Virus record (IMG/VR): IMGVR_UViG_3300047994_000277
Span: 1 to 64,000 of that record
DNA: 64,000 nucleotides
Source of the DNA: a virus
Taxonomy: Duplodnaviria > Heunggongvirae > Uroviricota > Caudoviricetes
Reading direction: 5' to 3' (one strand)
Part shown: positions 6,310 through 29,339 of the stretch, in pieces
Layout: every line of letters begins with the position of its first letter
How positions within the stretch are numbered: position 1 is the stretch's first letter
Translations under genes and position numbers: made by a program
The notes under the pieces: model-generated
Seen by the model: the letters and a program-made list of their open reading frames with translations, nothing else
Database searches by the model: none
What the model was told of the DNA's origin: nothing

Positions 6310-7287
6310 ATGAAGTTCCTCATCCTGCTACTGTTGGTTCAGTCCGCTTGGGCTGATGAATGGTTTTGCACGTCCCAAAGTTCGAAAAAGGAGGGGAATG
6401 GATATCTGGTATGCGGCGTTGGTCGAGGCTCGGACGTGGCCTCGGCCAGGGAAGATTCACTAGATCAGGCCAAGAAGGAGTTTCAGGGTCTATGTGCGCA
6501 GAGCGCCGATTGTCGGTGGCACGATGCCGTAGTGGAACCACTTAGGACGGCCTGTTCGGAAAAGGAGGGTCAGTTTGTTTGCTATCGGGCCGTGAAGTAC
6601 ACCCTTTCGTCCGTACCACCTCCTAAGCCGGCAGCAGATCGCCCTCTTTACCCTGAATCAATTGATGAGGAAATGTCCCAAAGGGCCGAAGCGGCCAATC
6701 CCATTTTACCAAAGGACACCTCGTATCGCGTGTTCAAGGCAAAGACGGCTGAAGAGGTTCACGATCTGCTCTGTAAGGGACCAAGGCCTCAGGTCAGCTA
6801 TTCATTTGTGTTCCATCCGCAAGGTCATCCTGGGCTGCCCATAGATCAGGCGGAGCAACTGAGGGCGCAGGACATCGCGCGCGCGAAGGTCCATTTCAAG
6901 TCCTTACTGTTTTACGTAGGTGCCGTGGGAGCAACGGATCCGAAAATCCCAAAGAACCGTTGGTACGAGGATTCTTACGTTCCGCAAAGCACCGCCCTGA
7001 GTGATTTGATCGAGAACTACACTTATATGTGGGAAAAATCCGAGATTAAAAGACTCAAGACGGATCGAGGTGTGATGACCGAACTAGGACACTTGGAATC
7101 AGAAGAGGATACGTCCACGCCAACGACCGCGCTTCGTAACCGCACCTCTCTGTGGATCCAAGTTCTCGCAGCATCGACTTCTTTGACCAGCCAGCCCTTG
7201 GGATCTGGTGACATCAAGTTCAAGGCCGATTTAGATCTCGCGTTGGCCTGTACGGCCATTCCTATAAGTCAATTGATTTCAAAATAA
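6310..7287 (+). CDS. secreted protein with signal peptide
   Basis: ATG at 6310 lies 2 nt after the upstream stop. MKFLILLLLVQSAWA is a cleavable signal peptide. The mature part is Cys-containing. Confidence 0.6.
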   Translation: MKFLILLLLVQSAWADEWFCTSQSSKKEGNGYLVCGVGRGSDVASAREDSLDQAKKEFQGLCAQSADCRWHDAVVEPLRTACSEKEGQFVCYRAVKYTLSSVPPPKPAADRPLYPESIDEEMSQRAEAANPILPKDTSYRVFKAKTAEEVHDLLCKGPRPQVSYSFVFHPQGHPGLPIDQAEQLRAQDIARAKVHFKSLLFYVGAVGATDPKIPKNRWYEDSYVPQSTALSDLIENYTYMWEKSEIKRLKTDRGVMTELGHLESEEDTSTPTTALRNRTSLWIQVLAASTSLTSQPLGSGDIKFKADLDLALACTAIPISQLISK

Positions 7288-7300
7288 AGAGGGTATTTCC

Positions 7301-7852
7301 ATGGGAGTCCGCAAATTACACGTTAACCATGTGCCTTTGATAGATATCGAATCACTTGCAAAACCCGTGCCATATGTGGGGAATCTCTTCGCCCATCCTT
7401 TTGTGGATGTGATCGAAGCGACCCTTTACGCGCTTGGGTTTGAGGATCCGGCTCTCTGCAGGCACATGAGTCACGATCGTATTGTTTGGTCCGCATCTTT
7501 TGATAACTCCATCATTTGCCGTTTTCAACTATTTTTGAACGGCTTTAGGGAAGTCGTAGTCAGCTTGACTTGTACGATCGGGCAGGCCGTAGAGGATCCG
7601 GTTAAACGAGAAAAGCTGTATGGGATCTTGCTTTTAAAGAATCGGACCTCAGAAGCGCCTTGGGGCTTTTCCTTGGACATGGCCACCTTCGTGATGGTCA
7701 ACTTTGAGTGCAATGCCCAGTGGATGACTCCTGACCATCTGGCCTTTAGGACCTACTCCATACCCGCTCACGGCGCTGAATTTCACGCCCTGTTCTTGTG
7801 CGCCGGTCTCATACAACTCCTACCTGCATCTTATTTTCAGATTTACGCTTGA
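7301..7852 (+). CDS. hypothetical protein (183 aa)
   Basis: AAGAGGG Shine-Dalgarno upstream of ATG at 7301. Confidence 0.55.
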   Translation: MGVRKLHVNHVPLIDIESLAKPVPYVGNLFAHPFVDVIEATLYALGFEDPALCRHMSHDRIVWSASFDNSIICRFQLFLNGFREVVVSLTCTIGQAVEDPVKREKLYGILLLKNRTSEAPWGFSLDMATFVMVNFECNAQWMTPDHLAFRTYSIPAHGAEFHALFLCAGLIQLLPASYFQIYA

Positions 7853-7883: not shown

Positions 7884-8007
7884 CGAAGGGTAGCTCAGTT
7901 GGTAGAGCGCCAGTTAGATTAACTGGAGGTCGCGGTGCGGAAAGCTAGTACCTAGGGACGCCTAGTGAAGACGAGTAATGCGAGTTCGAATCCCGCCCCT
8001 TCGACCA
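7884..8007 (+). tRNA. tRNA-like gene with an atypical 48 nt insertion
   Basis: Acceptor stem CGAAGGG (7884-7890) pairs with CCCTTCG (7997-8003), followed by A and CCA. D-arm GCTC-AGTTGGTA-GAGC. Anticodon-type hairpin CCAGT-TAGATTA-ACTGG. T-arm GCGAG-TTCGAAT-CCCGC. About 48 nt lie between the variable region and the T-arm, including a CTAGG-GACG-CCTAG hairpin. Total length is about 124 nt. Confidence 0.45.
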
Positions 8008-8157
8008 TTTTTCCTGGGCAAAACACTTTAGCGAGTGGCCAGGACGCCGCAGGGACCTGAGCGCTAACTCGAAAGCATGGCTGGGCTGAACCCCCTGGCA
8101 GGATGAGGAATTGGTCCTTCCTTTTGGGAGTGTAGCGGCGTTACATTTAGAGGACAC

Positions 8158-8355
8158 ATGTTTTTAACGCCAAATAAGTTGAATTACGGCACCTGTCCTC
8201 ACTGTAAGTTCGTCCTGAATCAATGGGACTACGTTCCATCCAGCGCCGTCGGAAGTAAAAATTTTGTTTACACGAAATGTCCAAATGACAAGTGCAAGAA
8301 AGACATCTTGGTCCGAGTTCGTATCACCATGGACGTTGAAGTTGAAGAAGTATGA
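8158..8355 (+). CDS. small zinc-ribbon protein
   Basis: Two Cys pairs: CPHC and CPNDKC. Its stop overlaps the next start (ATGA). Confidence 0.5.
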   Translation: MFLTPNKLNYGTCPHCKFVLNQWDYVPSSAVGSKNFVYTKCPNDKCKKDILVRVRITMDVEVEEV

Positions 8356-8744
8356 AATGGGCTTGGGGAGAACTCCTTGGAAAATCTGAATGTCCCTACA
8401 TTAAGAGATGGTACGTTGATTTCGGCCCGTTCTCGATCCGCCTACACCACTGGCTCTCCTCTGACGATCAAAGAAACTTTCACGATCATCCTTGGTGGTA
8501 TTGCAGCCTTGTTCTTCGCGGTTCTTATACTGATCGGTCTCCTAAGGGCAGTTCAAGACGGGGACCTGGATCTATCGACTATTTCCCAGCAACTCATCAA
8601 CACACAGTAGAGGTCGCGCCAGGCGGGTGCTGGACCATCCTGATCACTGGTCGTGAATCTCGCCAGTGGGGATTTTGGGTTAAGGGCAAGTTTAAAAAGC
8701 GCAATCGCTATTTCTATGATTTCGGTCATCATCCCTGCGAATAA
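8352..8744 (+). CDS. hypothetical His/Trp-rich protein
   Basis: ATGA-coupled to the upstream gene. Overlaps the alternative-frame ORF 8377..8610, which encodes a single transmembrane segment; which one is real cannot be decided. Confidence 0.4.
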   Translation: MKWAWGELLGKSECPYIKRWYVDFGPFSIRLHHWLSSDDQRNFHDHPWWYCSLVLRGSYTDRSPKGSSRRGPGSIDYFPATHQHTVEVAPGGCWTILITGRESRQWGFWVKGKFKKRNRYFYDFGHHPCE

Positions 8745-8908
8745 TTCTTGACCTCCTTATTCATCTAAGTTACCTTAATTTTACGAGCGGTGCCTGGCCC
8801 CAAAGGCAATAGGGTAGGCGAAGATATTCGTTCAATGGAGGGTTCAAATCCCTTCCTGGCTTTAGTCGCTAGCGCTGGTGACACGCTCCTTAATTTGAAA
8901 GGACTTAT

Positions 8909-9697
8909 ATGAAAAAGATCTGGTTTTTGATGGCTTTGGTTTTGGCGTCCGGTTGCACTCGCGTAAAGCAAGGTGAACTTGGCATCGTCAGTCACTTCTC
9001 TGGCACGGTCTCCGATGAGGCTGCTCATCCAGGTTTTAACATGACTATCTTTGATAGCATCGAGACTGTGGATGCCACAGAAGTTCGTGTTCCCATGACT
9101 GGACTTACGCCCAAAGATAAAGACGGCGTTCTGGTTACAGCCGCCGTTACAGCCACTTACCGCATCAATACGGAAAAAGCCGTGGCGTTCTTTAAACAGA
9201 CCCATGAAGTAGATCAGGTAAAGGAAAACGAGAGCACTATTACCGTTCTGGGCTATCGCGTCCTTGAGCAAGAAACGAATAACGCTACCCAAAAAGCCTT
9301 CTCTGAGTTTGCAGTGTCTGAGATCGTTCCTCGCAAGATGGAAATGGAAAAGCGTCTTAAAGAGCTGCTTCAACAGAAGATCGACGCTCGTTACGCCGAT
9401 GCTTTCATTATCGTGAACGTGAACATCAACGAGACCCGCCTGGGCGAGGCTGTCGAATTGGTTCTTCAATCACAAGCCATCGCTAAATCGCAAAAGCAGC
9501 TTCTTGAGTTGCAGAAAGATCTTTCCGAGCAAGAAACGGCTCTTCTTAATAAGAAGTTTGAAGGCATGAAGAAAGTGGCCGGCGCAGCTGGAATTCCTGT
9601 GGATAAGGTCATGGAGTACAAGCTTCGCGAACAGTACAACAACGTACTGTCTGAGATGGCGAAGAATCATTCGAATACTCAAGTTCAGGTAAAGTAA
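8909..9697 (+). CDS. SPFH/band-7 (stomatin/HflC-like) domain lipoprotein
   Basis: Lipobox LASGC at the N-terminus. SPFH-like segment LGIVSHFSGTV...TATYRI...FSEF, followed by a coiled-coil tail. Confidence 0.7.
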   Translation: MKKIWFLMALVLASGCTRVKQGELGIVSHFSGTVSDEAAHPGFNMTIFDSIETVDATEVRVPMTGLTPKDKDGVLVTAAVTATYRINTEKAVAFFKQTHEVDQVKENESTITVLGYRVLEQETNNATQKAFSEFAVSEIVPRKMEMEKRLKELLQQKIDARYADAFIIVNVNINETRLGEAVELVLQSQAIAKSQKQLLELQKDLSEQETALLNKKFEGMKKVAGAAGIPVDKVMEYKLREQYNNVLSEMAKNHSNTQVQVK

Positions 9698-9698
9698 T

Positions 9699-10040
9699 AT
9701 GAAATCACTTATTTCTTTTTTGGTGTCGTGCGCGATCTTTCCCATAATGGTTTATGCAATTGCCAAGTTCGCGTCGAGGCCTCATGTTCATAAGCCTCTC
9801 TATAAGGCTGGTGACTGTTATAAGCACAAGAATGAATCTGAGTTCGGAAAAGATGGCTCTATCCACATGATTCTTAAAGTAGGCAATGCCGAGTATCTTT
9901 ACGATACTTATGACGAGGAAGATAATTTGTTCTTATTTAATCCGAAATATCCCAATCATGATCGATTCGATTTTTTTGAAATGGTTAATGCTGTACAGGT
10001 TGACTGTCCAGATGCGCCAACCCACATTCTTAAGTATTGA
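9699..10040 (+). CDS. membrane-anchored hypothetical protein
   Basis: N-terminal hydrophobic helix. ATG lies 1 nt after the upstream stop. Confidence 0.5.
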   Translation: MKSLISFLVSCAIFPIMVYAIAKFASRPHVHKPLYKAGDCYKHKNESEFGKDGSIHMILKVGNAEYLYDTYDEEDNLFLFNPKYPNHDRFDFFEMVNAVQVDCPDAPTHILKY

Positions 10041-10310: not shown

Positions 10311-10566
10311 GTCTCTTTGGACAGATATGTTTGATCGAGGAGAACCTCTTCCCGAAGAGGAAGATATGCCAGACAATCCTGTTCCTCAGGAGCTTCTTGA
10401 TGCTGAAGATCGTTGCCCAAACGTAAAATTTGTTAAGTCTTGTAGGGCGTTTTTTGAGAAACGCGGATTTCTGTCCGATGCGCAAAAGAATGCTTTAAGA
10501 TATGCTGGCACTAAGAATCGTAGAAATAATTATTGGAACGGTTACGAGCCGTGGTCGGAGGATTGA
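10297..10566 (+). CDS. hypothetical acidic protein
   Basis: ORF overlapping the upstream gene by 14 nt. Confidence 0.45.
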   Translation: MGIFKSLWTDMFDRGEPLPEEEDMPDNPVPQELLDAEDRCPNVKFVKSCRAFFEKRGFLSDAQKNALRYAGTKNRRNNYWNGYEPWSED

Positions 10567-10568
10567 AT

Positions 10569-10898
10569 ATGTTTAACAGCGATGAAACCCCTACAGATAC
10601 ACGCACGAGATCCCAGATTTGGTCCGATAACATCGCCGAATTTTGCGGTTCTTGGGGCTTTGTGTTTTGGTTCTCAGGTCTTATTGGCGGCTGGATCCTC
10701 CTGAACACTTGCTGCGTTATATTTCATAAGTGGGACGAATACCCCTTTATTCTGCTTAATCTGTTTTTGACCGTTATCAGCACTATGCAAAGTCCAATCA
10801 TTATGATGGCTCAGAATCGCCAAGTCGAACGTGATAGAGAGCACGTTCAGGGTATCCACGATAAGCTGGATAGAGTGATGGAAGAGTTAAAAAAATAG
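10569..10898 (+). CDS. DUF1003-like two-TM membrane protein
   Basis: ATG at 10569 follows a GGAGGA Shine-Dalgarno. Contains PFILLNL and IIMMAQNRQVERDRE, recalled as DUF1003 signatures. Confidence 0.5.
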   Translation: MFNSDETPTDTRTRSQIWSDNIAEFCGSWGFVFWFSGLIGGWILLNTCCVIFHKWDEYPFILLNLFLTVISTMQSPIIMMAQNRQVERDREHVQGIHDKLDRVMEELKK

Positions 10899-10955: not shown

Positions 10956-11618
10956 ATGCCTATTAAGAGTTTTTTGACGAAGGTCGGTTTGGTTGAAGAA
11001 GATGTCCAGGTTAAAGCTAAGGCGGCTACGCCTGCTCCAGCTCCAACTGTGAGTTCAGGTCGTCCACCTGCACTGCCCGTGTCAGGATCGACCTTCTCTA
11101 GCATGAGTTTTACGCCTGCTCCGACAATCGATCCTGCCATTCAGGAAATGCTCAGTCAGTCTCTTCAAGAGAGCAAGCTTTCTGGTTTCGATTATCTTAA
11201 GTTCATCTCAGCTGTGGAAGAGACTCGCTCCACGGGTGTTCCTGAGGATGCACGATTTAAGATGACCTTCTCGACGGCCAAGCAGCTCGGCGTCGATAAG
11301 AACTCTCTTCTTAAGTCTGGCCAGCACTATATCGACGTGCTCACTCAAGATGAAACTGATTTCAACGCCGATTGCGCGCAGTACGAGAAGAACGAAGTGC
11401 AATCTAGGGAAACTAAGCTTGCTACGGTTCAAAAGACGATTAGCGATCTTAATAGTCAGCTCGCTCAGCTGAACCAGGATCAGTTCACTTTGACTCAAGA
11501 GCTTCAGCAAGAAAAGCTCAAGCTTGAGTCTCGAAAAGCGGCTTTCCGTGTGACCGTGGAAAGCATTCGTAGCACTATTAAGTCGAACATTGACAAAATT
11601 AATCAATATCTTCAGTAA
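10956..11618 (+). CDS. coiled-coil protein
   Basis: AGGAGA Shine-Dalgarno before ATG at 10956. Pro/Ala-rich linker followed by a long heptad-repeat C-terminus. Confidence 0.5.
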   Translation: MPIKSFLTKVGLVEEDVQVKAKAATPAPAPTVSSGRPPALPVSGSTFSSMSFTPAPTIDPAIQEMLSQSLQESKLSGFDYLKFISAVEETRSTGVPEDARFKMTFSTAKQLGVDKNSLLKSGQHYIDVLTQDETDFNADCAQYEKNEVQSRETKLATVQKTISDLNSQLAQLNQDQFTLTQELQQEKLKLESRKAAFRVTVESIRSTIKSNIDKINQYLQ

Positions 11619-11627
11619 GGAGTAAAT

Positions 11628-12659
11628 ATGGATACTACAACTGTTTCAAAAAAGCCTTGGTATAAGAAGTCTGAAAACGTCATTGGAGCACCGGTCGTAG
11701 GCCTCGCCCTCGCGGCCCTGGCCGTTTACGTGGGAGTTCAAATTCTCCCTTACGTGATTTTGGCTGCAACCAACACGATCTATGCCGTTCTCCTCCTGGG
11801 AGCTTTGGCCGCTCTGACGTTTGCCGCCCTGGATAAGGACGTTCATACGGCTGTTTATTACGGCTGGAAGTCTCTTACGCGCGCTATCGGATATGCGATC
11901 GTTAACCAAGATCCTATTGGTGTGATCGAAACCAGCATTAAGATCATGCAAGCTCGCTTAGACGAAATGTCCACCAGCAAAGCTGAAGTCGGCGGACAGC
12001 TTAAAGGGCTGACTGCAAAGATCAAGTCTAACTCTGATAGAGCGGAACTTGACATGAAAAAGGCCCAGCAGGCCGAGAAGCAGGGTGACGTTCAGGGTAA
12101 GACCTTGATGGCCCTGGAAGCTCAGCAACTGATTTTGTCCAATAAGAGTCTTACCGAGACTAAGAACAAGATCGAGCTTATGTATCGCGTTCTCGAAAAG
12201 ATGACCTCCACTGTGGATTTTAACATCAAGAAGACTCGCAGTGAGCTTGAGATCAAGAAGGAAGAGCGCAAGGCCATCATGGCTGCTCATGCCGGAATGG
12301 TCAAAGGTTGGAAGGTGATCGGTGGTAGCGGACCTGAAGCGGAAATGTTCAACCGCGCCATGGAAAGTATCGCTGAAACCGCCAATAAGCAGCTCGCCGA
12401 GATCGACGACATCATGGATCTCTCTCAAGGTATCATCAAGGGTGTTGACCTCGAAAAAGGTGTCATCCAAGACGACGCGCTTAAGATGCTTGAACAATGG
12501 GAAAAGGGCGGCAGCTCTGCTCTCCTTGGTACCGATAAGGCCATTCTGATCTCTCAGGCTTACGACCCAAATCAAGCCGTGGATTTTTCGTCAGACCAAA
12601 AGGTTCTGGTGACGACCACTAAGCCTGGAAAGTTCAAAAGCGTCCTGGATAAAAGCTGA
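11628..12659 (+). CDS. membrane-anchored coiled-coil protein (PspA/IM30-like architecture, speculative)
   Basis: Two N-terminal transmembrane helices followed by about 250 aa of charged heptad repeats. GGAG Shine-Dalgarno upstream. Confidence 0.55.
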   Translation: MDTTTVSKKPWYKKSENVIGAPVVGLALAALAVYVGVQILPYVILAATNTIYAVLLLGALAALTFAALDKDVHTAVYYGWKSLTRAIGYAIVNQDPIGVIETSIKIMQARLDEMSTSKAEVGGQLKGLTAKIKSNSDRAELDMKKAQQAEKQGDVQGKTLMALEAQQLILSNKSLTETKNKIELMYRVLEKMTSTVDFNIKKTRSELEIKKEERKAIMAAHAGMVKGWKVIGGSGPEAEMFNRAMESIAETANKQLAEIDDIMDLSQGIIKGVDLEKGVIQDDALKMLEQWEKGGSSALLGTDKAILISQAYDPNQAVDFSSDQKVLVTTTKPGKFKSVLDKS

Positions 12660-12685
12660 TAACGTAACTAAAGAAAGGAAATTGT

Positions 12686-14212
12686 ATGAATATCGTTAAT
12701 AATGAAAGCGGAAGAGCGACACTGCTGGCAAAACTCCTGATCGTAGGTTTGATTTGCGGAGTAGCGTTCGTTGGACTCAAGAAATTCGGACAAACCCCTA
12801 CGGCCCAGAACATCCTTGCTAACGATGCCGAAACGGTTCGGGTTAGCGTGGTGACCTGGGGCGGATACGCTGGCGGTCAGTACTTCAACCGTGGCTTTAA
12901 GGCCAATACGGAATCCGAGTACTACAAAAAGTACGGCATGAAGGTCGAATTCGTCCTTCAGGACGACGTGGCCGCTGGCCGCGAAGCCTTCAAGGCCGGT
13001 AAAGTGGATGCTATTTGGGCAACCGCTGACTCCTTCCCTACCGAAGCAAAAGGTTTGGGTGAATTCGAGCCCGTGATCATAATGCAATCCGACTGGTCTC
13101 ACGGTGGCGATGCCATTGTGGCCCGTGGCGGTATCAATTCGATCAACGATCTTCGCGGCAAGAAAGTTGCTGTGGCTATCGGAACTCCCTCTCATTCATT
13201 CCTTCTTTACGCTCTTAAGGCGTCAGATATGACGGTTAAGGACATTACAGTCGTAGAGAAGTCAAACGCTGTCGATGCTGCAAGCGATTTCAAAGCCAGT
13301 GCAGTTGACGCCGCAGTGGTTTGGTCTCCAGATGACCAGGACTGCATTCAGAAGGTTCAGGGATCCAAGATCCTTAAGAACACTCGCGAAGCTTCTAGAA
13401 TCATTGCTGACGTCTTCTTCGTGAAGCGTTCGTATCTCGAAAAGAATCGCGACAAGGTCCATAACCTTGTTGAAGGCTGGCTGACTGGTAATGCTCAGAT
13501 CAATACCAATCCTTCTTCTCGCAGTGCTGCAATCAAGATCCTGGCTCAAGGACTGAATGTCGATGAAGGTCTCGCCGGGACCATGTTGGGCAATGCTCGC
13601 CTGACCACCCTTGGCGACAACAAGAACTTCTTCGGTCTCAACGGTGGATACAACGGAGTGACTGGCGAAAAGCTCTATGTGAATATGACCCAAGAGTACG
13701 CGAAGGTCGGTATGGCTCCTTCTGGAACCCCGGATTGGCGCCGTATCTCTGATGGTTCGATCGTGTCGAGCCTGAACCTGAGTGGCAGTGAAAACGATGC
13801 CGAACCTGAGACGAAGTTCGATGCCCCTACGGCGGCTTTGGCTACGGCTCCAGCATTCAGCACGAAGAAGCTGTCCATCACCTTCCCTACGGGATCGTCT
13901 ACGCTTGACGATAATGCCAAGGCCCTCATCGCAATGTCCTTCGTGGATATCGCTAAGGCTTTCGGTAACACCCGCATCCGCGTGGAAGGTAACACGGACA
14001 ACGTCGGTAGTGAAACCACAAACAGAGCGTTGAGTACCCGCCGCGCTCAATCCGTGGTCAACTATCTTGTCGAAGAACACCGCTTCGATCGTAACCGATT
14101 CGTGACGGTTGGCAACGGTTCTTCTAAGCCAACTTCGGGAGCGTCTAATGACACTTCTGAAGGTCGGGCCAAGAACCGCCGCACTGACTTCGAATTGCTC
14201 AATAACAACTAA
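12686..14212 (+). CDS. ABC transporter substrate-binding protein (NMT1/SsuA/TauA family) fused to a C-terminal OmpA-like peptidoglycan-binding domain
   Basis: N-terminal signal anchor. SsuA/NMT1-like core (VRVSVVTWGGYAGGQYF...GKVDA). C-terminus NTDNVGSETTNRALSTRRAQSV...NRRTDFEL matches the OmpA C-terminal consensus. Confidence 0.8.
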   Translation: MNIVNNESGRATLLAKLLIVGLICGVAFVGLKKFGQTPTAQNILANDAETVRVSVVTWGGYAGGQYFNRGFKANTESEYYKKYGMKVEFVLQDDVAAGREAFKAGKVDAIWATADSFPTEAKGLGEFEPVIIMQSDWSHGGDAIVARGGINSINDLRGKKVAVAIGTPSHSFLLYALKASDMTVKDITVVEKSNAVDAASDFKASAVDAAVVWSPDDQDCIQKVQGSKILKNTREASRIIADVFFVKRSYLEKNRDKVHNLVEGWLTGNAQINTNPSSRSAAIKILAQGLNVDEGLAGTMLGNARLTTLGDNKNFFGLNGGYNGVTGEKLYVNMTQEYAKVGMAPSGTPDWRRISDGSIVSSLNLSGSENDAEPETKFDAPTAALATAPAFSTKKLSITFPTGSSTLDDNAKALIAMSFVDIAKAFGNTRIRVEGNTDNVGSETTNRALSTRRAQSVVNYLVEEHRFDRNRFVTVGNGSSKPTSGASNDTSEGRAKNRRTDFELLNNN

Positions 14213-14220
14213 GTCCATCC

Positions 14221-14252
14221 GCCGGGGAGCCCTTCGGGGCTCCCCTTTTTTA
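14221..14252 (+). terminator. rho-independent terminator or attenuator
   Basis: Hairpin GGGGAGCCC-TTCG-GGGCTCCCC followed by TTTTTTT, between the substrate-binding gene and the permease gene. Confidence 0.75.
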
Positions 14253-14266
14253 TTGAAAGGCTTTTT

Positions 14267-15073
14267 ATGAAAGAGTTGTTTCAGTTACGAGGAGAATTAA
14301 ATAGGACCACGCAGTTGATCACTCAGATCTGCGGCATCGTTTTCCTGGTTGGTCTGTGGCAGACCGTATGCCAATTCTTTCATGTCCCTAAGGGTATTCT
14401 TCCCTCTCCGTTTGACGTCCTTAGCTCTTTCCAGGAGCTTTTCACTCAAGATAACTTGATCAGGAACCTGTCCTATTCACTCAAGATCAATCTCTACGGA
14501 TACGCCGAGGCAATTGGGGTTTGCATCCCGCTAGGATTCTTGTTGGGCCTTTTCCCACTATTTAGGGAAATGTTTTCGAAGCCTCTGGACTCCATTCGCT
14601 TCCTTCCTATTTCAGCCCTGACCGGCCTGTTCATTGCTTGGTTCGGCATCGAAGAGTCCATGAAGGTACAGTTTCTCGCATTCGGTATCGGCGTGTACCT
14701 CCTTCCTTTGGTTGTGCAGCGCGTCAATGAAGTAGAGCAGGTGTACTGCGACACCGTGTTCACCTTGGGCGCTTCTAAGTTGCAGACCATCCAAAAAGTT
14801 TTTCTTCCCGCAGTATTGGCCAAGGTGTCCGACGACATTCGGGTGATTACCGCAGTGTCTTGGACTTACATTATCATCGCCGAGCTTGTTAATCGAGCCG
14901 ACGGCGGCATTGGAAGCTTGGCTTACCTTTCCTCTCGCCAAAGCAGGCTCGATAAGGTGTTTGCCGTACTCCTGGTAATCATTGCGATCGGTTTTATCCA
15001 GGACAAGCTTGCGGTCCTTATCGACAAAATCTTCTTCCCTTATAAAGAAGTCGCAAAGAAAGCAGGCGCATAA
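14267..15073 (+). CDS. ABC transporter permease (SsuC/TauC/NitT family)
   Basis: Six predicted transmembrane segments. EAA-like loop GASKLQTIQKVFLPAVL. Typical N-terminal GILPSP. Confidence 0.8.
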   Translation: MKELFQLRGELNRTTQLITQICGIVFLVGLWQTVCQFFHVPKGILPSPFDVLSSFQELFTQDNLIRNLSYSLKINLYGYAEAIGVCIPLGFLLGLFPLFREMFSKPLDSIRFLPISALTGLFIAWFGIEESMKVQFLAFGIGVYLLPLVVQRVNEVEQVYCDTVFTLGASKLQTIQKVFLPAVLAKVSDDIRVITAVSWTYIIIAELVNRADGGIGSLAYLSSRQSRLDKVFAVLLVIIAIGFIQDKLAVLIDKIFFPYKEVAKKAGA

Positions 15074-15837
15074 TGGCTAACATTATAGAATTAAAAGATA
15101 TTTGCCAATCATATGGTTCTAAAGAAGTCATAAAAGGTCTCAATGTTGCCATCGAAGATAAGCCAAAGGGCGAGATCGTAGCCATTCTAGGTCCCTCTGG
15201 ATGCGGTAAATCGACTTTGCTCAGGTACGTCTCTGGTTTACAAGCTCCAACTGCCGGGGAAGTGATTCTTCACGGAGAGCCGCGATCTGAAGAGGATCGG
15301 GTCGGCATGGTATTCCAGAAGTATTCTTCTCTTCCATGGAGAACGGTCCTTGAGAACGTCGAGTTGGGGCTGGAGCTGAGCGGCGTTGATTCTAAGACCA
15401 GGCGCGAGCGCGCCCTGGCCATGTTGGAACTGGTCGAACTGAGTGATCATGCCAATAAATTTGCCCAGTACCCTACCCTTTCTGGAGGTCAGCTTCAGCG
15501 CGTGGCCATCGCACGCTCTTTGGTGGCTAACTCTAAGATTTTGCTGATGGATGAACCTTTTGGAGCCCTGGACATCAAGACCAGGCTTAAAATGCAGGAT
15601 ACGGTTCTTAACATCGGTAAGAAGCTTAGTCAGGAAATTACCGTTCTTTTCGTTACCCACGATATCTCAGAAGCCGTTTATCTGGCCGATGAGATCATTA
15701 TCATGGGCGGATCTCCTTCTAAAATAGTTGACAAGATTTCTATTCCATTCGGCGATAATAGGAGTCATAATCTGAAGGACAATGCGTGGTTTAAGTCCAC
15801 GGTGAGGGATATCGAAGAAAGAATGATGAGGGACTAA
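15073..15837 (+). CDS. ABC transporter ATP-binding protein
   Basis: Walker A GPSGCGKST. ABC signature LSGGQLQRVAIARSL. Walker B LLMDEPFGALD. TAATG overlap with the permease gene. Confidence 0.9.
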   Translation: MANIIELKDICQSYGSKEVIKGLNVAIEDKPKGEIVAILGPSGCGKSTLLRYVSGLQAPTAGEVILHGEPRSEEDRVGMVFQKYSSLPWRTVLENVELGLELSGVDSKTRRERALAMLELVELSDHANKFAQYPTLSGGQLQRVAIARSLVANSKILLMDEPFGALDIKTRLKMQDTVLNIGKKLSQEITVLFVTHDISEAVYLADEIIIMGGSPSKIVDKISIPFGDNRSHNLKDNAWFKSTVRDIEERMMRD

Positions 15838-16598
15838 TGAAAACAAAGCATGCCGAAAATTTTATCAGAGAGGCGTCTAAAAATTTTACAGACTACCGTA
15901 GCTTTGTCTCTCAGCTTGAAAAGTACGTCGTAGGTAACCTAGATCTTCAACATAAGCAAAACCCCATCGTTAGGCGACTTAAGGACCTAGGTGCCAAAGA
16001 TATCCTATTTGCCATCAAAGAGTATTCTCAGTTTTCCAATGAAGCGGTTCATATGCTTCTGGACGCGCGCGTGCGCACCCATGAGTGGAAGAAGCTGGCT
16101 CAGGAAATTGATCGCAATATCGAAGAGGAAAAGGGCAAGGAAACGCTCGGAGTGCCTCATCTTGAGATCATGCGTAAAGGCTATCGCCTGAGTTTTGATT
16201 TCGACGTGAACAATTACGAGCCCTCAGAAGTCACCAAGTCCTTCCTGCATTCGATGAGAAGAATCTTCAAAACCAAGGACAATGCCTTTCAATCCGGTGC
16301 CCTGTTGGCCTTTGAAAGCGTGTCCATCCCTGAGTTCTACGTCCTCGATTCGTTGGTCGAGAAATGTGAGAATCACCTCCATACGCTTAAGCGGAACGAG
16401 TACACGGCAGAGTACATCAAGGGGCATAAGTTCTTTGAGATTGGCCACAGAGAAGGTTTGCTGAATGCAATCGAAGAATACATCAAGGCTGATCAAGCTT
16501 CAGACTTTGCTACGGGTTATTTAGCCGTATGCGTTACTATGTCTAGTTGGTGGAACAACCTTAACGATTCTATAACATTTAACAGACATCAGGAATAG
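15837..16598 (+). CDS. all-alpha protein, possibly heme-oxygenase/TenA/PqqC-like fold (speculative)
   Basis: Co-transcribed with the ABC genes (TAATGA overlap). Helical with several E/H-containing segments. No definitive motif. Confidence 0.45.
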   Translation: MKTKHAENFIREASKNFTDYRSFVSQLEKYVVGNLDLQHKQNPIVRRLKDLGAKDILFAIKEYSQFSNEAVHMLLDARVRTHEWKKLAQEIDRNIEEEKGKETLGVPHLEIMRKGYRLSFDFDVNNYEPSEVTKSFLHSMRRIFKTKDNAFQSGALLAFESVSIPEFYVLDSLVEKCENHLHTLKRNEYTAEYIKGHKFFEIGHREGLLNAIEEYIKADQASDFATGYLAVCVTMSSWWNNLNDSITFNRHQE

Positions 16599-16599
16599 T

Positions 16600-16848
16600 A
16601 TGCGTCGTTGCGAGGATTGTGGAACCCGAATGATCGATTACGGAATCGATTACGCTTGCCCTAAGTGCCCAACTTTCATGAGTCCAGGTTATATTTGGAC
16701 TGACCAAAGACGCCTTAAATACTTAAGTATGCGTTTATCCGTTGCTGAACAATCTTACGAAGCTGCACGTAAAGCGTATTTGGAAGTAAAACAAGAAATA
16801 GAAGCTTTAGAGAAAAAGATCGAAAAAAATCGATCCGGCGCAGTCTGA
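16600..16848 (+). CDS. zinc-ribbon protein with coiled-coil tail
   Basis: CEDCG...CPKC Cys4 ribbon. Confidence 0.5.
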   Translation: MRRCEDCGTRMIDYGIDYACPKCPTFMSPGYIWTDQRRLKYLSMRLSVAEQSYEAARKAYLEVKQEIEALEKKIEKNRSGAV

Positions 16849-17080
16849 GTTTTACGATATATACGGTTGTTCCTGCGAGCGCAAACGGGCCGAACAATGG
16901 TTGGTTAAGTAACGTGCGCGACGGCAGACCTGGGCGACGCTGAAAACAGCTGGGACCAACTAGTCCGGGCGAGGTCTTAGTGGGAACACTTTTCAAATCC
17001 AGGTGCCAAGGGCTTAACCCGCCTCGAATTCACCATTACCGTCTCGGTGGGTTAAATGACGACTATAAACAGCCTGGACT

Positions 17081-17620
17081 ATGTTTAAGCTCCCTAAAAA
17101 CCCTAAAATAGAAGAACTCACTAAATCCTACCGCGAACGCCGAATCAACCTTAGCGACCTTGATGCCGTAGTTGTAGATGGCGTTAAGCAATGCCGATGG
17201 TGCCTTACTCCGCTTACCGGTCGCAAGTACATGTGGTGCTCTTCTGATTGCCAAAACACTGCTTGGGCGTGGGCCAACCCTCAGAAAGAGGGCGGCCTGC
17301 ACATCCTTCTGGCTCGTCAGGACTTTAAGTGCAATCAATGTCAGTTCGACTACATGCCTTACGTGGAAGATTCCATTAAGTACATGAACCAGAAAAAGAA
17401 GACTATCGATCCTAACTCGATTAAGGAAAAAGTGAACGAGCGATTGATGAAGTTGCTCAAGTACAAAACTCCTTCCGATCGGCTCCCAGAAGTTGATCAC
17501 GTAGTGCCGATTTATAAGGGCGGCATGCCTTTAGGGTTTGACAACCACCAGGCCATTTGTTACTCTTGCCATAAGACCAAGACTAAGGTCGATTTGTCTG
17601 GTAAGAGGAATAAGAAATGA
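17081..17620 (+). CDS. HNH endonuclease
   Basis: EVDHVVPIYKGG...FDNHQAICYSCHKTK gives the HNH catalytic triad. Flanked by CxxC pairs. Confidence 0.8.
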   Translation: MFKLPKNPKIEELTKSYRERRINLSDLDAVVVDGVKQCRWCLTPLTGRKYMWCSSDCQNTAWAWANPQKEGGLHILLARQDFKCNQCQFDYMPYVEDSIKYMNQKKKTIDPNSIKEKVNERLMKLLKYKTPSDRLPEVDHVVPIYKGGMPLGFDNHQAICYSCHKTKTKVDLSGKRNKK

Positions 17621-17926: not shown

Positions 17927-18481
17927 ATGTTTAAGAAACTTTTCGGTCGTAAGGAAGTTAAGCAAGCCCCTGTCGCTACGGCGGTTGAAGCATCTAAAGG
18001 CTATCACTCTTGCGTAGATACCTGTGAGAAGGACATCGATAATCTTGAGACAGAGTGTGAAAATCTCCGCAAGGATAATCTGATCCTGATTGGCAAAGTG
18101 ACCGCTCTCCAAACCCGCGAGAAAAAGCTTCAGGACGACGTAAGCGAGATGACTCAAGTTGCTAATGAAAACTTCGATAAAGTTAAAGAAAAAGACGAGC
18201 GCATTTCCGAACTTGAGCAGCGCCTTCAGGAAGCTGACGAAAAGGCTGACGGTACGCCAGTTAAGTATGCTTCTGCCCGTAAAACCCTTACTAAGGCTAA
18301 GCTGAAACAGCTTCGCGACCGCCTTGAAGCCGTTCCTTCAGGCGCTACAGGATTCGGTGGCTCCTGCTCCGTCTACGATAAGAAGACCAAGCGTCTCTCT
18401 GTCGTAGAGTTCAAATCCAAAGACGAGGCCCTCGCTTTGGTTGATCGTGCGGAGAAGGGTTATGTCGATATTGTCATGTGA
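17927..18481 (+). CDS. coiled-coil protein
   Basis: Charged heptad repeats. AGGAGAA Shine-Dalgarno upstream. Confidence 0.5.
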   Translation: MFKKLFGRKEVKQAPVATAVEASKGYHSCVDTCEKDIDNLETECENLRKDNLILIGKVTALQTREKKLQDDVSEMTQVANENFDKVKEKDERISELEQRLQEADEKADGTPVKYASARKTLTKAKLKQLRDRLEAVPSGATGFGGSCSVYDKKTKRLSVVEFKSKDEALALVDRAEKGYVDIVM

Positions 18482-20579
18482 TGAGTTCGTAGCTGATAGG
18501 AACAAAGTAACCCTAACTGTTCGCGACAACGCTCTAGTTATCGATTTAGCAGCAGCCCCTCGCTTGGAAGGTACTAGCGGATTTGTAATTAGCAATGGTT
18601 CAGGTGCGTCTAACAGCATAACCATCACTCCTGGCGGCAATTTGAATTTGGGAAATGGATACGTTGGCAGCGTTACTTCAAATACACTGTCGCAATACGG
18701 AACCGTTGGCTACAGGCTGTTCTTTCATCGTGGATTTCTTAAGTGCGTTAAGCGAGAAATTGCGTATTATCAAACACTTAACGTTGTAAGTACTTCGTCA
18801 ACCTATCATCTGCAAGATAGTAATTCTCCTAAGCAGAAAGCGCGAGAGACTTTTTATCATCCTGCTGTAATTTTGGAAGTGATGACAACCAAAGAGGCGA
18901 GAGAAACTCTAAAGAATCGATTAATTGAGTTTTCTCGTAAAAGGGGGATAGAAGTCCCACATGCGTTCAGAGACGTAGGTCCATTAACATTAGATAGATC
19001 GTTTGACGTCATGTCGGTTATTGATTGGCTTTCTTATCCTTTGCTAAGGGAAATCAATAATCCGTGCATGTGCTATAACACCGCACCCGTAGATAGGGAG
19101 ATCATGGCTCCGTCGTATGAGCCCATGAATTTCAAAGAGTTAGTGCAACACTATTTTGGAACCATTACTTCCAAAATGCTTGAAGAAATTTGGAAGGTTG
19201 TAGTTGTAGGCAACGATTATGCGGTTAGAAGATTTGATAGCGAAATGGCTCGCACCGCTTATATGGCTTATGGAAATACCAGATTTTTGAAGGATAATGG
19301 AGATCACGTAATCGAGGCGGGGAATAAAAAGTTTCAGGTAAATGTTTTTACTCTTGGTGTAGCGATCTTCAAGGCTTTGGGCTTTGACTACTTTTATCAA
19401 TGTATTAATAAATTTGCCACGGTTTCAGGATCACCTGGCTCGGCTGGAATGTTAACGCCCAATTATCAGCGTGCAGCTCAGCTGGAGATGGATTTTGCCA
19501 CTTTACTGAAAAGCATAACTCCTAAAAAGCTTATTGGCGCCCTGTTTGCTGAAGATGCACTGCCAGATACCCATAACTTGTACGATGCCTGTAGAATGAT
19601 TCGTGAATACGAACCAGCTCAGTCTATTCCAAAGAAACTAAAGACTCAGTATCCGAATGGGCTTAGGGTAGATTTTAAGTTTAAGACCATAAAAGAGTTG
19701 CACGACAAGATTTCCACCCAATACACGATCATCAAGACTGAATCCAATAATAGAGAAATCCCTATCTCTCCAGAGTACATGTGCCTGGATAGGCGTGAAA
19801 GAGACGGCCTGACCCTAGTGGTCCCAGATAACACCTCCACTCTGGCCATCTGGGGTAAGTTGCTCAACATTTGCATCGCGTCTTATGGTGATAGAGCAGC
19901 TAGAGGTGACACCCTTCTCCTTGGCGTGGAGAAAGAGGGTAAGATCAAGTACTGCCTTGAGTTCTATTCCTTACCGGTAGAAATCATTAGACCTATGGAA
20001 TCTATTGTGGCCGGCATTTTTGAGGAAGGAAAGGCCCCAGAAGATGCTTTGGTTGAGACGGTTAGGGTCGCCTACCCACGTTTAATCCAAAGGCATATGG
20101 GAGTAACTCCCTCAGATATCCCGGAAGAAGAGGAATATTTTTACGAGCTTAGCGAAGCACAGTTTAGGGGTGAGCGAAACGGTGATCCGACAAAAGAGGA
20201 TCGCGCAGCCGTATATTATCTTTTGAATCAGTGGGTCCAGGAAAACAAAGAAAGACTTGAGAAGATCAAAGGTATCTTTGAAGAGCGCGGTAACCAGTGG
20301 CACAATGGGGCTCAACTGAATGAGCAAATGCTGCAAGGAGTTTTACAGCAAGTTCAAAATCATTATGCGATCCCAGACCAGATTATGTTGAATCCTCAAG
20401 CATATCAAGCTTATCAAAACGTTTTCAATAACAACGTTGTTATGGATCCAGGTCCGCCGCCCATTTTCAATGGCCAGGTTAACATGGTCGTGAATCCTTA
20501 TATTCCTCCTGGCGAGGTTTGGGCAGTAGATGCGGACGGAGTCCGTTTCCAGCCGGTCATACAAAATGTTGTGGTCTAG
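18462..20579 (+). CDS. large hypothetical protein (about 705 aa)
   Basis: ATG at 18462 with a GAGAAGGG Shine-Dalgarno; the track gives a TTG at 18441. No recognised catalytic motif. Confidence 0.5.
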   Translation: MSILSCDEFVADRNKVTLTVRDNALVIDLAAAPRLEGTSGFVISNGSGASNSITITPGGNLNLGNGYVGSVTSNTLSQYGTVGYRLFFHRGFLKCVKREIAYYQTLNVVSTSSTYHLQDSNSPKQKARETFYHPAVILEVMTTKEARETLKNRLIEFSRKRGIEVPHAFRDVGPLTLDRSFDVMSVIDWLSYPLLREINNPCMCYNTAPVDREIMAPSYEPMNFKELVQHYFGTITSKMLEEIWKVVVVGNDYAVRRFDSEMARTAYMAYGNTRFLKDNGDHVIEAGNKKFQVNVFTLGVAIFKALGFDYFYQCINKFATVSGSPGSAGMLTPNYQRAAQLEMDFATLLKSITPKKLIGALFAEDALPDTHNLYDACRMIREYEPAQSIPKKLKTQYPNGLRVDFKFKTIKELHDKISTQYTIIKTESNNREIPISPEYMCLDRRERDGLTLVVPDNTSTLAIWGKLLNICIASYGDRAARGDTLLLGVEKEGKIKYCLEFYSLPVEIIRPMESIVAGIFEEGKAPEDALVETVRVAYPRLIQRHMGVTPSDIPEEEEYFYELSEAQFRGERNGDPTKEDRAAVYYLLNQWVQENKERLEKIKGIFEERGNQWHNGAQLNEQMLQGVLQQVQNHYAIPDQIMLNPQAYQAYQNVFNNNVVMDPGPPPIFNGQVNMVVNPYIPPGEVWAVDADGVRFQPVIQNVVV

Positions 20580-27186: not shown

Positions 27187-27404
27187 AAAGAAGCGAAATG
27201 TTACAAATCCTTAATGATGCTGTCATTGAAGCTGGTATTTCTCAAAAGATTTACAATAGCAAAGAATCATTGGAACATGTTCTACAGAAGCTCGAAGAAG
27301 CTGGGATGAAACCTCCCGTGACCAAGAATTGCCCTGTTCTTTTGACCACCCAACATACCTGGGAGCCTGAAAATGAACAAAATTCTAGAATTCAAGTTCG
27401 GTAG
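27183..27404 (+). CDS. small hypothetical protein
   Basis: ATGA overlap upstream. Confidence 0.4.
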   Translation: MKRSEMLQILNDAVIEAGISQKIYNSKESLEHVLQKLEEAGMKPPVTKNCPVLLTTQHTWEPENEQNSRIQVR

Positions 27405-28383: not shown

Positions 28384-28384
28384 C

Positions 28385-29338: not shown

Positions 29339-29339
29339 T

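Follow-up and report, generated by a model that had tools for sequence, protein, structure and literature searches.

We analyzed a locus in a window of 64,000 nucleotides (the whole stretch of DNA considered here) that encodes an ABC importer together with several accessory proteins. Four intact open reading frames on the + strand were confirmed at 12686-16598, where a preliminary description of the sequence had placed them. They make up the distal portion of a cassette of seven genes spanning 10956-16848. The four-gene unit of the preliminary description consists of real and intact genes, but it overlooked the upstream coiled-coil and PspA-like genes, which synteny identifies as constant upstream partners of the transporter in phages and bacteria. 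The features are listed below with the basis of each assignment in brackets.

10956..11618, + strand: cytoplasmic coiled-coil partner protein, 220 aa (synteny, alignment, ribosome-binding site)
11628..12659, + strand: membrane-anchored PspA/IM30 (ESCRT-III-like) protein, 343 aa (synteny, Pfam matches of the family, Foldseek)
12686..14212, + strand: bitopic substrate-binding protein (SBP), 508 aa (Pfam, AF2, Foldseek)
12707..12790, + strand: transmembrane anchor of the SBP, aa 8-35 (hydropathy scan; 13-34 in the AF2 model)
12833..13795, + strand: TauA/SsuA-like domain of the SBP, about aa 50-370 (Pfam, Foldseek)
13880..14176, + strand: OmpA-like peptidoglycan-binding domain of the SBP, aa 399-497 (Pfam OmpA, 5.4e-18)
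14224..14251, + strand: hairpin GGGGAGCCC-ttcg-GGGCTCCCC followed by T6, between the SBP and permease genes (folding)
14267..15073, + strand: ABC type-I importer permease, 268 aa (BPD_transp_1)
15073..15837, + strand: ABC ATPase, 254 aa (ABC_tran, 3.3e-31)
15837..16598, + strand: DUF3865 protein, a CADD-like heme-oxygenase-like dimetal oxidase (HDO), 253 aa (PF12981)
16600..16848, + strand: small zinc-ribbon and coiled-coil protein, 82 aa (weak zinc-ribbon Pfam matches only)

Proteins and organization of the cassette

The alignment and an AAGGAG ribosome-binding site place the start of the coiled-coil gene at ATG 10956 rather than at TTG 10917, the start given in the list of open reading frames. 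A hydropathy scan detected no transmembrane segment in this protein, and its Pfam matches were coiled-coil noise only. Its homologues are syntenic: in Lak-A1, LR756501, IMG/VR contigs and bacterial chromosomes, they lie upstream of the gene for the PspA-like protein. In the latter protein, a pair of N-terminal transmembrane helices (transmembrane region at residues 15-72) leads into a long helical hairpin. Full-length homologues are found at the corresponding position in Lak-A1 (E 7e-23), LR756501 (5e-11) and bacteria, and homologues are annotated by JGI as 'phage shock protein A'. PF04012 matched 25 of the 139 members of the family (best 7e-8) compared with 5 of 139 for the runner-up Pfam family; the window's own protein had no Pfam match. 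Its AF2 model is poor (pLDDT 57), and the top Foldseek matches (Vipp1, PspA and CdvB2) are weak, with E-values of 5e-3 or worse. These family-level matches suggest that the 343-aa protein may have a PspA-like activity. In Lak-A1, LR756501, bacterial chromosomes and most of the 27 IMG/VR contigs, both genes are found ahead of the transporter.

The SBP begins with a single hydrophobic helix that lacks a lipobox and is followed by a flexible linker. Pfam matches to NMT1 (1.9e-12), NMT1_2, Phosphonate-bd and a C-terminal OmpA domain, the hydropathy scan and a good AF2 model (pLDDT 89.3, pTM 0.85) bear out the family, N-terminal anchor and C-terminal OmpA-like domain proposed earlier. The latter domain also matched OmpA-like structures in the PDB, and its invariant NTD...R motif is intact. 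In Foldseek searches, the top match was TauA (6SSY, 1.9e-18), a structure bound to 2-aminoethylphosphonate, followed by SsuA (2X26), with only 18-20% identity to TauA and SsuA. All NCBIfam matches fell below the cut-off, the best being SsuA_fam. Four loop motifs (WGGY, DWSRGGD, TPS and WSPDD) are strongly conserved and, judged from the sequence, probably line the cleft, as is typical of ligand binding.

The permease contains transmembrane segments and an EAA-type coupling loop (aa 162-181); its best NCBIfam matches (SaoP, SsuC and TauC) are each below the cut-off. The ATPase retains Walker A, the Q-loop, the LSGGQ signature, Walker B and the H-loop, and best matches a TauB-like model at 204 bits against a cut-off of 357. 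With these motifs and the EAA-type loop intact, neither protein is degenerate, and the locus encodes a complete three-component ABC importer of the NitT/TauT kind, as had been described.

Translational coupling was claimed for all the transporter genes. It holds at the permease/ATPase junction, where the genes overlap at TAATG, as they also do at the ATPase/HDO junction, but not between the SBP and permease genes, which are uncoupled by a 54-nt spacer with a hairpin. The hairpin noted there earlier is genuine: its stem has 9 bp, 8 of them GC, the minimum free energy of the spacer region (14205-14270, 66 nt) is -23.9 kcal/mol (z = -2.6), and a hairpin and T-run with differing stem sequences occur at the same place in two related phage contigs (L004 and L005). 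It may be a partial terminator or an mRNA-stabilizing element. The T-run lies about 15 nt from the permease start codon, a distance that seems too short for a promoter, so the permease and later genes would need read-through. At the distal end, the small zinc-ribbon gene begins 1 nt past the HDO stop codon. It is limited to this phage clade, in which L004, L005, L006 and L064 carry a 70-82-aa counterpart at the same position.

The accessory oxidase

The HDO matched DUF3865 (PF12981) at 7.1e-30, with 104.8 bits against a cut-off of 31.6, and its PDB matches were 3B5O (E 3.7e-22) and BesC 7TWA (0.004). Compared with the known HDOs (CADD, UndA, BesC, SznF) and with the 'CADD-like protein' 3B5O/3B5P solved by JCSG from Nostoc punctiforme, it is homologous to 3B5O and weakly to BesC. 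Its candidate metal ligands, E98 (or E97), H108, E160, H197, E201 and H204 (3-His/3-carboxylate), match the E...H / E / HxxxExxH pattern of HDO ligands (PMC7848743), and the six ligand residues are invariant in 20 homologues. The preliminary description rightly saw an all-helical protein with Glu/His motifs and a possible heme-oxygenase-like fold, which 3B5O supports. Its suggestion of a TenA/PqqC-like protein is ruled out by the DUF3865 assignment, the six metal ligands and the lack of a Pfam match to PF03070 (TENA/PqqC). We found no DUF3865 member with a known reaction in the literature. Characterized HDOs sit in natural-product or cofactor pathways, whereas this one lies beside an ABC importer and a PspA-like gene.

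Outside phage collections, close oxidase homologues adjoin the cassette in 24 of 30 bacterial or metagenomic loci (6/7 from genomes and 18/23 from metagenomes). That this adjacency is seen in four gene orders speaks for functional coupling. The oxidase is part of the cassette, but as an accessory component, given that most phage and bacterial cassettes lack it; one phage-like contig carries the oxidase alone, without the cassette.

Distribution and proposed function

The preliminary description did not recognize the SBP-OmpA architecture. It is not new, and the cassette is common in Bacteroidota and large phages: the architecture has >2,400 homologues, mainly in Bacteroidota, a PGAP name ('phosphate ABC transporter substrate-binding/OmpA family protein') and a PHROG (25518). 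Phage copies occur in Lak megaphages, the 735-kb phage LR756501, Bacillus phage G and 27 IMG/VR contigs. Identity between the window's SBP and its bacterial relatives is 50-57%, and phage sequences are intermixed with bacterial ones in a neighbor-joining tree. Full importers were described as very rare in phages; the cassette is rare among phages as a whole but recurs in large and huge ones. Phage G (gp243, gp245, gp249, gp250), Lak and LR756501 encode homologous SBP-OmpA proteins (27-38% identity), permeases and ATPases. Lak-A1 and LR756501 share the gene order of the window, including the two upstream genes. Unlike the window phage, all three lack the oxidase, and in phage G we detected a pair of SBP paralogues but no PspA-like gene.

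The closest described operons come from the computational work of Ravi et al. (2024, mSystems), who reported PspA/Snf7-with-TM operons that encode an ABC ATPase together with a permease and a PBPB-OmpA protein, and proposed that membrane remodelling is linked to solute transport (PMC11237479). An AAA+ (Vps4-like) ATPase is usual in those operons (example OGG56892.1), whereas none was found near the cassette in the window. The likeness to our SBP, which is of the NMT1/SsuA type, is by description, as PBPB may be a different family, and their paper says nothing of phage copies or of the DUF3865 oxidase (PMC11237479). In the literature, we found no experimental study of any cassette member.

We interpret the cassette, with a probability of roughly 60%, as a captured host module for envelope maintenance and uptake that is shared with bacteria and other large phages. 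The PspA/IM30-like protein would sit on the cytoplasmic face of the inner membrane, and the SBP would be tied to that membrane by its N-terminal helix and to peptidoglycan by its OmpA-like domain. The SBP, which we propose is produced in excess given the hairpin after its gene, would capture a small periplasmic solute, probably an anion or zwitterion, as are the ligands bound by TauA and SsuA. The permease and ATPase would then import the solute, and the cytoplasmic oxidase may transform it or a related metabolite with O2. The PspA-like scaffold and its coiled-coil partner would stabilize or organize the membrane around the transporter. During infection, expression of the cassette may keep the host envelope working or supplied. 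The gene content, domains, intact motifs, synteny, oxidase-cassette linkage and hairpin conservation are observations; the direction of transport, the substrate class, the PspA-like activity and this role in infection are inferred.

A fairly unlikely alternative is nutrient scavenging of the Tau/Ssu type, with the HDO taking the place of TauD or SsuD in tauABCD or ssuEADCB to release S, P or N from an imported organosulfonate- or aminophosphonate-like compound, and with the PspA-like proteins as mere neighbors. In Tau/Ssu operons, an oxygenase gene accompanies the transporter genes. The window has a similar coupled gene after its transporter, with conserved oxidase-transporter adjacency, and the cassette resembles the E. 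coli NitT/TauT importers TauABC and SsuABC in its SBP fold, type-I layout, nearest solved SBPs and best NCBIfam models (SsuA_fam, TauB, SsuC and TauC). However, the identity to TauA and SsuA is low and the scores are far below equivalog cut-offs, the enzyme is an HDO rather than TauD or SsuD, and the SBP is membrane-anchored with a peptidoglycan-binding domain that has no obvious scavenging role. Most cassettes lack the oxidase, yet the PspA-like gene is nearly always present. We know of no HDO that cleaves C-S or C-P bonds.

It is quite unlikely that the cassette is an envelope machine rather than an importer, in which the ABC pair would drive the SBP-OmpA tether and a PspA-like polymer, passing on force or a signal to repair or reshape membrane; huge phages might in this way build or protect membrane structures. 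Its constant partners, a PspA/ESCRT-III-like protein and a protein bridging membrane and cell wall, would fit, as would the adjoining Band-7/SPFH and DUF1003 membrane protein genes, the enrichment of the cassette in very large phages and the remodelling link suggested by Ravi et al. (PMC11237479). The permease is nevertheless a canonical type-I importer with an EAA loop, not of the MacB/FtsX type, the conserved SBP loops point to ligand binding, and the remodelling ATPase is missing.

The resemblance to a ThiXYZ-TenA salvage unit for the thiamine pyrimidine HMP, raised in the preliminary description, did not survive and we consider it very improbable. The SBP is indeed a member of the NMT1/THI5 superfamily, its structural matches include ThiY (3IX1) and a thiamin SBP (4NMY), and the neighboring enzyme shares its overall fold class with TenA. 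Nevertheless, ThiY ranks below TauA/SsuA (TM-score 0.66 vs 0.79), the cassette partners are PspA-like rather than thiamine genes, and the enzyme is a DUF3865 HDO with six invariant residues predicted to bind metal. TenA is a hydrolase without a metal.

Phage origin

That the region is a bacterial chromosome fragment or defence island is scarcely credible. The transporter proteins do have their closest homologues in bacteria, at 50-57% identity, and one close relative was binned in an archaeal MAG, but the window carries co-oriented genes for baseplate hub and wedge, tail and virion proteins, RNR, ThyA and RNA repair, the sole match of one tail protein is Myxococcus phage Mx1, the same cassette occurs in a relative that has a portal gene, GC content is uniform, and PADLOC returned generic domain matches only. 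The transporter is phage-borne, as originally held. The nearest isolate is also Mx1, and the window phage is Mx1-like, probably of ~170 kb, and not a megaphage. The GC content of the cassette genes equals that of the rest of the phage and the cassette is kept in relatives diverging by 25-50% at the protein level, which argues that it has long resided in this lineage.

The cassette and its transporter

Seven genes on the plus strand of the window (10956-16848) are probably a bacterial ABC importer cassette that a phage captured, associated with PspA and equipped with a dedicated DUF3865 oxidase; it would act at the host envelope during infection (probability about 0.6). The preliminary description covered four of them, and its positions agree exactly with our list of open reading frames (ORFs), all four on the plus strand. 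The seventh gene encodes an 82-aa zinc-ribbon protein and directly follows the oxidase gene in the window's phage clade. The other six are:

From 10956 (not 10917, as listed), +, cytoplasmic coiled-coil protein
11628-12659, +, PspA-like protein, 343 aa, with long helices behind two N-terminal transmembrane helices
12686-14212, +, substrate-binding protein (SBP) fused to an OmpA-like domain (SBP-OmpA), 508 aa
14267-15073, +, permease, 268 aa
15073-15837, +, ATPase, 254 aa
15837-16598, +, gene 4, putative oxidase, 253 aa

We searched the transporter proteins against Pfam. The SBP matched NMT1, NMT1_2 and Phosphonate-bd, followed by a C-terminal OmpA domain (5.4e-18). The permease matched BPD_transp_1 and has an EAA-type coupling loop, and the ATPase matched ABC_tran (3.3e-31) with Walker A, Q-loop, LSGGQ signature, Walker B and H-loop all present. 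Given these motifs, the importer components are intact, as had been proposed, and neither the permease nor the ATPase is degenerate. The SBP anchor is a single hydrophobic helix (residues 8-35 in a hydropathy scan, 13-34 in the AF2 model); the N-terminus has no lipobox, so the protein is probably membrane-anchored with its body outside. The OmpA-like domain scores 65.6 bits with PF00691 (cut-off 27.2) and matches the OprF, Omp38 and Pal domains in the PDB. Its N436-T437-D438 and R453 (NTD...R, the peptidoglycan-contact Asp/Arg) are invariant in 25 homologues, and it is predicted to bind peptidoglycan.

TAATG overlaps connect the permease gene with the ATPase gene and the ATPase gene with gene 4. 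The earlier claim of translational coupling is thus borne out for these three genes and fails for the SBP and permease genes, which are separated by a 54-nt spacer. This spacer contains a hairpin (14224-14251; 9 bp, 8 of them GC pairs) followed by T6; when folded, the 66-nt spacer region gave a minimum free energy of -23.9 kcal/mol (z = -2.6). A hairpin and T-run occupy the equivalent place in two related phage contigs with different stem sequences, so it is the structure that is conserved. A terminator or attenuator had been suggested for this position, and the hairpin is confirmed. The distance from the T-run to the permease start is too short for a promoter. The downstream genes would thus need read-through, and the SBP message would outnumber theirs, a pattern seen in many bacterial ABC operons. 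An Rfam search in and near the cassette detected no riboswitch and no other RNA family.

We compared the AF2 model of SBP-OmpA (pLDDT 89.3, pTM 0.85) to solved structures using Foldseek. The nearest was TauA with bound 2-aminoethylphosphonate (1.9e-18, TM-score 0.79) and SsuA was second (3.6e-17), with TM-scores of 0.78-0.79 for the two; the thiamin SBP, PqqT, Thi5, ThiY, CmpA and NrtA ranked lower. The SBP has the NMT1/SsuA fold (class II periplasmic binding protein), and Pfam NMT1 and NMT1_2 are above cut-off. Based on this fold and on the permease and ATPase motifs, we predict a binding-protein-dependent ABC importer of the NitT/TauT type. With TauA and SsuA as nearest structures, the locus could be a Tau/Ssu-like scavenging set whose oxidase is a cleaving oxygenase. 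We consider this unlikely because the NCBIfam equivalog scores are all well under cut-off: 85 bits for the SBP with both SsuA_fam (cut-off 163.5) and the uca urea SBP model (ABC_peri_uca, cut-off 334), 204 bits for the ATPase with the TauB-type model (cut-off 357), and 73 and 116 bits for the permease with SsuC and SaoP (cut-offs 347 and 295), TauC also being well under cut-off. By these curated cut-offs none of the transporter proteins reached SsuABC, TauABC or urea-uca equivalog status, and the transporter appears to form a separate subfamily within the NitT/TauT group. Four SBP loop motifs (WGGY, QxDWSRGGD, TPS and WSPDD) are invariant across 25 homologues, which argues for a real, conserved ligand. 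An envelope machine with no transport function is less probable still than a scavenging set.

Both ORFs upstream of the SBP gene are homologous to and syntenic with ORFs upstream of other SBP genes. Their homologues occur in Lak-A1 (E 2e-7 and 7e-23) and in the 735-kb phage LR756501 (E 1e-8 and 5e-11), and the pair also precedes the SBP gene in most IMG/VR contigs and in bacterial chromosomes. By homology and synteny the pair appears to belong to the cassette, a unit that would exceed the four genes first described. Pfam and PDB profile searches gave no recognisable family for the coiled-coil protein. Homologues of the 343-aa protein carry the JGI label ‘phage shock protein A’ and form a family of about 1,300 representative clusters. 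PF04012 (PspA_IM30) matched 25 of 139 family representatives (best 7.3e-8; the next family matched 5 of 139) and did not match the window's own protein in a Pfam search. The AF2 model of this protein (pLDDT only 57) contains a hairpin (96-152 / 155-228) and a further helix (236-272). Its top Foldseek matches, to Vipp1, PspA and CdvB2, were weak (E 5e-3 to 0.09), and with so poor a model the fold search is suggestive only. Profiles of both upstream families, searched against PDB sequences, returned coiled-coil noise and nothing significant. We provisionally place the protein in the PspA/ESCRT-III superfamily, as a putative divergent member that is anchored in the membrane. The papers retrieved for phage-encoded PspA appeared to deal with PspA/ESCRT-III in general.

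Two further PspA-like homologues were encountered. Ralstonia phage RsoM2USA (MG752970.1, a 344-kb jumbo phage) encodes one at 6902-7828 (27% identity, E 4e-13) without ABC transporter genes nearby, so the gene seems also to travel alone in phages. MCX9024666.1 is 85% identical to the window's protein and is encoded on an 83-kb contig deposited in a ‘Candidatus Methanoperedens’ MAG; most likely, a relative of the window phage was binned wrongly.

The oxidase and its linkage to the cassette

Gene 4 encodes a DUF3865 protein (PF12981, 7.1e-30; 104.8 bits, cut-off 31.6) with a weak Haem_oxygenas_2 match. Over residues 39-243 it is homologous to 3B5O (E 3.7e-22), and weakly to BesC; 3B5O/3B5P is a JCSG structure of a ‘CADD-like protein’ from Nostoc punctiforme. 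Twenty homologues (33-66% identity) all retain E97, E98, H108, E160, H197, E201 and H204, which provide three His and three carboxylate candidate ligands on the core helices, E97 and E98 being alternatives. They follow the ligand pattern E...H, E, HxxxExxH of the heme-oxygenase-like dimetal oxidases SznF, UndA and CADD (PMC7848743). A preceding helix contains an invariant H72 and near-invariant E69 and D76, so a seventh metal ligand is possible. We predict that gene 4 encodes a dimetal oxidase of the metal-dependent branch of the heme-oxygenase-like fold. No functional literature was found on DUF3865 or on 3B5O/3B5P.

TenA/PqqC (PF03070) is a metal-free family, and TenA is a hydrolase. The preliminary description had raised a TenA/PqqC/heme-oxygenase-like fold for gene 4 and, with it, a ThiXYZ-TenA-like unit for pyrimidine (HMP) salvage. 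The fold class was right and the family was not: Pfam at E ≤ 0.01 gave no PF03070 match in gene 4, which is instead a PF12981 protein with six invariant metal ligands. Nor is ThiY (3IX1) the closest relative of the SBP: it ranks 28th in the Foldseek search with a TM-score of 0.66, behind TauA and SsuA. HMP salvage is thus very improbable. What survives of the earlier interpretation is the observation itself, the intact importer, the hairpin, the phage origin and the fold class of gene 4; the ThiXYZ-TenA analogy and the novelty of the architecture do not.

The main new result is the linkage between this oxidase and the cassette. We scanned the oxidase alignment against 185,579 species genomes and, separately, against metagenomes. 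The genome scan detected seven bacterial loci (Bacteroidia, Bacteroidetes, Cytophagales, Flavobacteriales, Bacteroidota and Leptonemataceae). The cassette directly adjoins the oxidase in six of these, and the remaining one is a 4-kb contig. Cassette genes also adjoin the oxidase in 18 of 23 metagenome loci, the other five being short contigs or contig edges. The genes are arranged in four ways:

Oxidase downstream of permease and ATPase: 11 metagenome loci, and the window itself
Cassette and oxidase in divergent orientation: seven loci
Oxidase first, then coiled-coil, PspA-like and SBP: three loci
Oxidase first, then PspA-like, SBP, permease and ATPase: three loci, one of them continuing with the coiled-coil gene

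An adjacency kept through so much reshuffling of gene order speaks for functional coupling. The oxidase is absent from the cassettes of Aureispira, a 6.4-Mb JGI genome, Lak-A1, LR756501 and most IMG/VR contigs; it is an accessory of the cassette. Its adjacency to the transporter offers a concrete route to DUF3865 function, via the SBP ligand as a candidate oxidase substrate. A 149-kb phage-like contig (L007) encodes a DUF3865 oxidase alone at 8001-8819, without the cassette, and the neighbouring genes include a 2OG-Fe(II) oxygenase, PhyH and NAD synthase.

Occurrence, origin and possible role

PHROG 25518 spans the whole SBP-OmpA fusion (2.3e-49). With tblastn, the fusion was matched over its full length in 15 Lak megaphage records (38% identity), in the 735-kb phage LR756501/LR756503 (37%) and in Bacillus phage G (gp249 and gp250, 27%). 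LR756501 and Lak-A1 have SBP-OmpA, permease and ATPase in the same order. In phage G, gp243 (permease) and gp245 (ATPase) lie near the SBP genes, and an hhalign comparison of the PspA-like profile with gp242 and gp247 gave no match. Two IMG/VR scans yielded 27 viral contigs; of the 23 whose lengths were tallied, 10 are longer than 200 kb, the longest reaching 512 kb. More than 2,400 proteins recovered in a protein search share this domain set. Many of them, at 50-57% identity, are encoded on Bacteroidota chromosomes, for example Aureispira (7.3 Mb) and the 6.4-Mb genome, under the PGAP name ‘phosphate ABC transporter substrate-binding/OmpA family protein’. The architecture, which the preliminary description did not recognise, therefore already has a PHROG, a name and abundant homologues. 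A DNA-level search of the four genes and a tblastn search of gene 4 against phage records gave no match, and Mx1 lacks the cassette. Relatives of the window phage keep the gene order though their proteins differ by 25-50%, so the cassette is probably old in this lineage. Our literature search found nothing functional on Lak or phage G ABC transporters or on SBP/OmpA fusions.

A rough neighbour-joining tree without support values divides the phage SBP-OmpA sequences among at least four clades, with bacterial sequences interspersed. Spirochaetia, Leptonemataceae and Bacteroidota sequences are close to the clade of the window; the clade of Lak and LR756501 branches deeply. This topology fits repeated exchange between bacteria and large phages. 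An LR756501 ORF with Por_Secre_tail (type IX secretion sorting) and Fib_succ_major domains (2021-3361) lies ~2.6 kb upstream of the SBP gene, just upstream of the coiled-coil gene of that cassette, and is consistent with a Bacteroidota host.

The operon type was already noted by Ravi et al. 2024 (PMC11237479), who suggested a tie between membrane remodelling and solute transport. As in their operons, the window has co-oriented genes for a PspA-like protein with transmembrane helices, for an SBP-OmpA fusion, and for an ABC permease and ATPase. Many of their examples also have an AAA+ (Vps4-like) ATPase, which did not turn up in the ORFs neighbouring the cassette in the window, Lak-A1 or LR756501. 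The same paper states that this ATPase ‘may occur’, so it is perhaps not obligatory. With the architecture also widespread in bacteria, the locus is less striking than first thought.

Its importance comes mainly from the oxidase linkage and from its repeated appearance among large and huge phages. Phage genomes with the cassette range from ~170 kb (the Mx1-like lineage of the window) to 735 kb, with Lak, LR756501 and phage G among them, which suggests that large phages commonly need to keep up or alter the host envelope. Acting as one unit, the cassette would join a bacterial ESCRT-III-like membrane protein, a wall-tethered ABC importer and a DUF3865 oxidase. A bolder and less probable reading is that the seven genes form one uncharacterised envelope machine for membrane or envelope repair or remodelling, captured repeatedly by large and huge phages. 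In such a machine an ESCRT-III-like membrane-anchored polymer, an ABC transporter and a two-iron oxidase would act together. The binding protein would staple the inner membrane to the cell wall, and the compound handled could, for example, be lipid- or wall-derived. Phages would thereby keep the host envelope intact, or reshape it, through long infections.

Phage identity and neighbouring features

The window encodes a baseplate hub, a wedge and a tail-associated lysin (PHROGs), a virion protein, RNR alpha and beta, the thymidylate synthase ThyA and the RNA-repair-like trio listed below; nearly all of these genes share one orientation. Its RNR has 67% identity to the Myxococcus phage Mx1 enzyme, and a search of 50,697 phage records with a 631-aa tail-region protein gave Mx1 as the sole match. 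Relatives with the same cassette are contigs of 78-173 kb, one with a portal gene, and the GC content of the cassette equals that of the rest of the window. The virion and replication genes, the Mx1 matches and the uniform GC content confirm a phage and not a bacterial chromosome fragment. A bacterial fragment or defence island is the least likely explanation of all, and the defence reading was dropped because PADLOC was negative, with only generic MotB-like and ABC-ATPase matches.

A Band-7/SPFH gene (8909-9697; PF01145, 3.7e-12) and a DUF1003 membrane protein gene (10533-10898; 1.1e-24) lie just upstream of the cassette and form with it a local membrane-associated cluster that is not kept in related phage contigs. 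A related phage contig (L004) encodes a Thg1-like protein (tRNA-His guanylyltransferase family; 8955-9803) two genes downstream of the oxidase. An RNA-repair-like trio lies elsewhere in the window:

27373-30572, nucleotidyltransferase, PNK (polynucleotide kinase) and RNA ligase (PHROGs 388, 505 and 968)

At 7884-8004 (+), Rfam gave a whole-model tRNA match (46 bits) with a ~50-nt insertion at the variable-arm position; ARAGORN called no tRNA in the window. Between the cassette and an HNH endonuclease gene (17081-17620), ~200 nt of relatively GC-rich non-coding sequence (16860-17060) had no Rfam match at E ≤ 1 and could be a structured RNA or a mobile-element remnant. A giant 2187-aa ORF (50666-57229) contains a baseplate-wedge (PHROG 6) segment near its N-terminus, and a 712-aa ORF (18441-20579) combines a PcfJ-like domain with a weakly SU10 major-capsid-like C-terminus.
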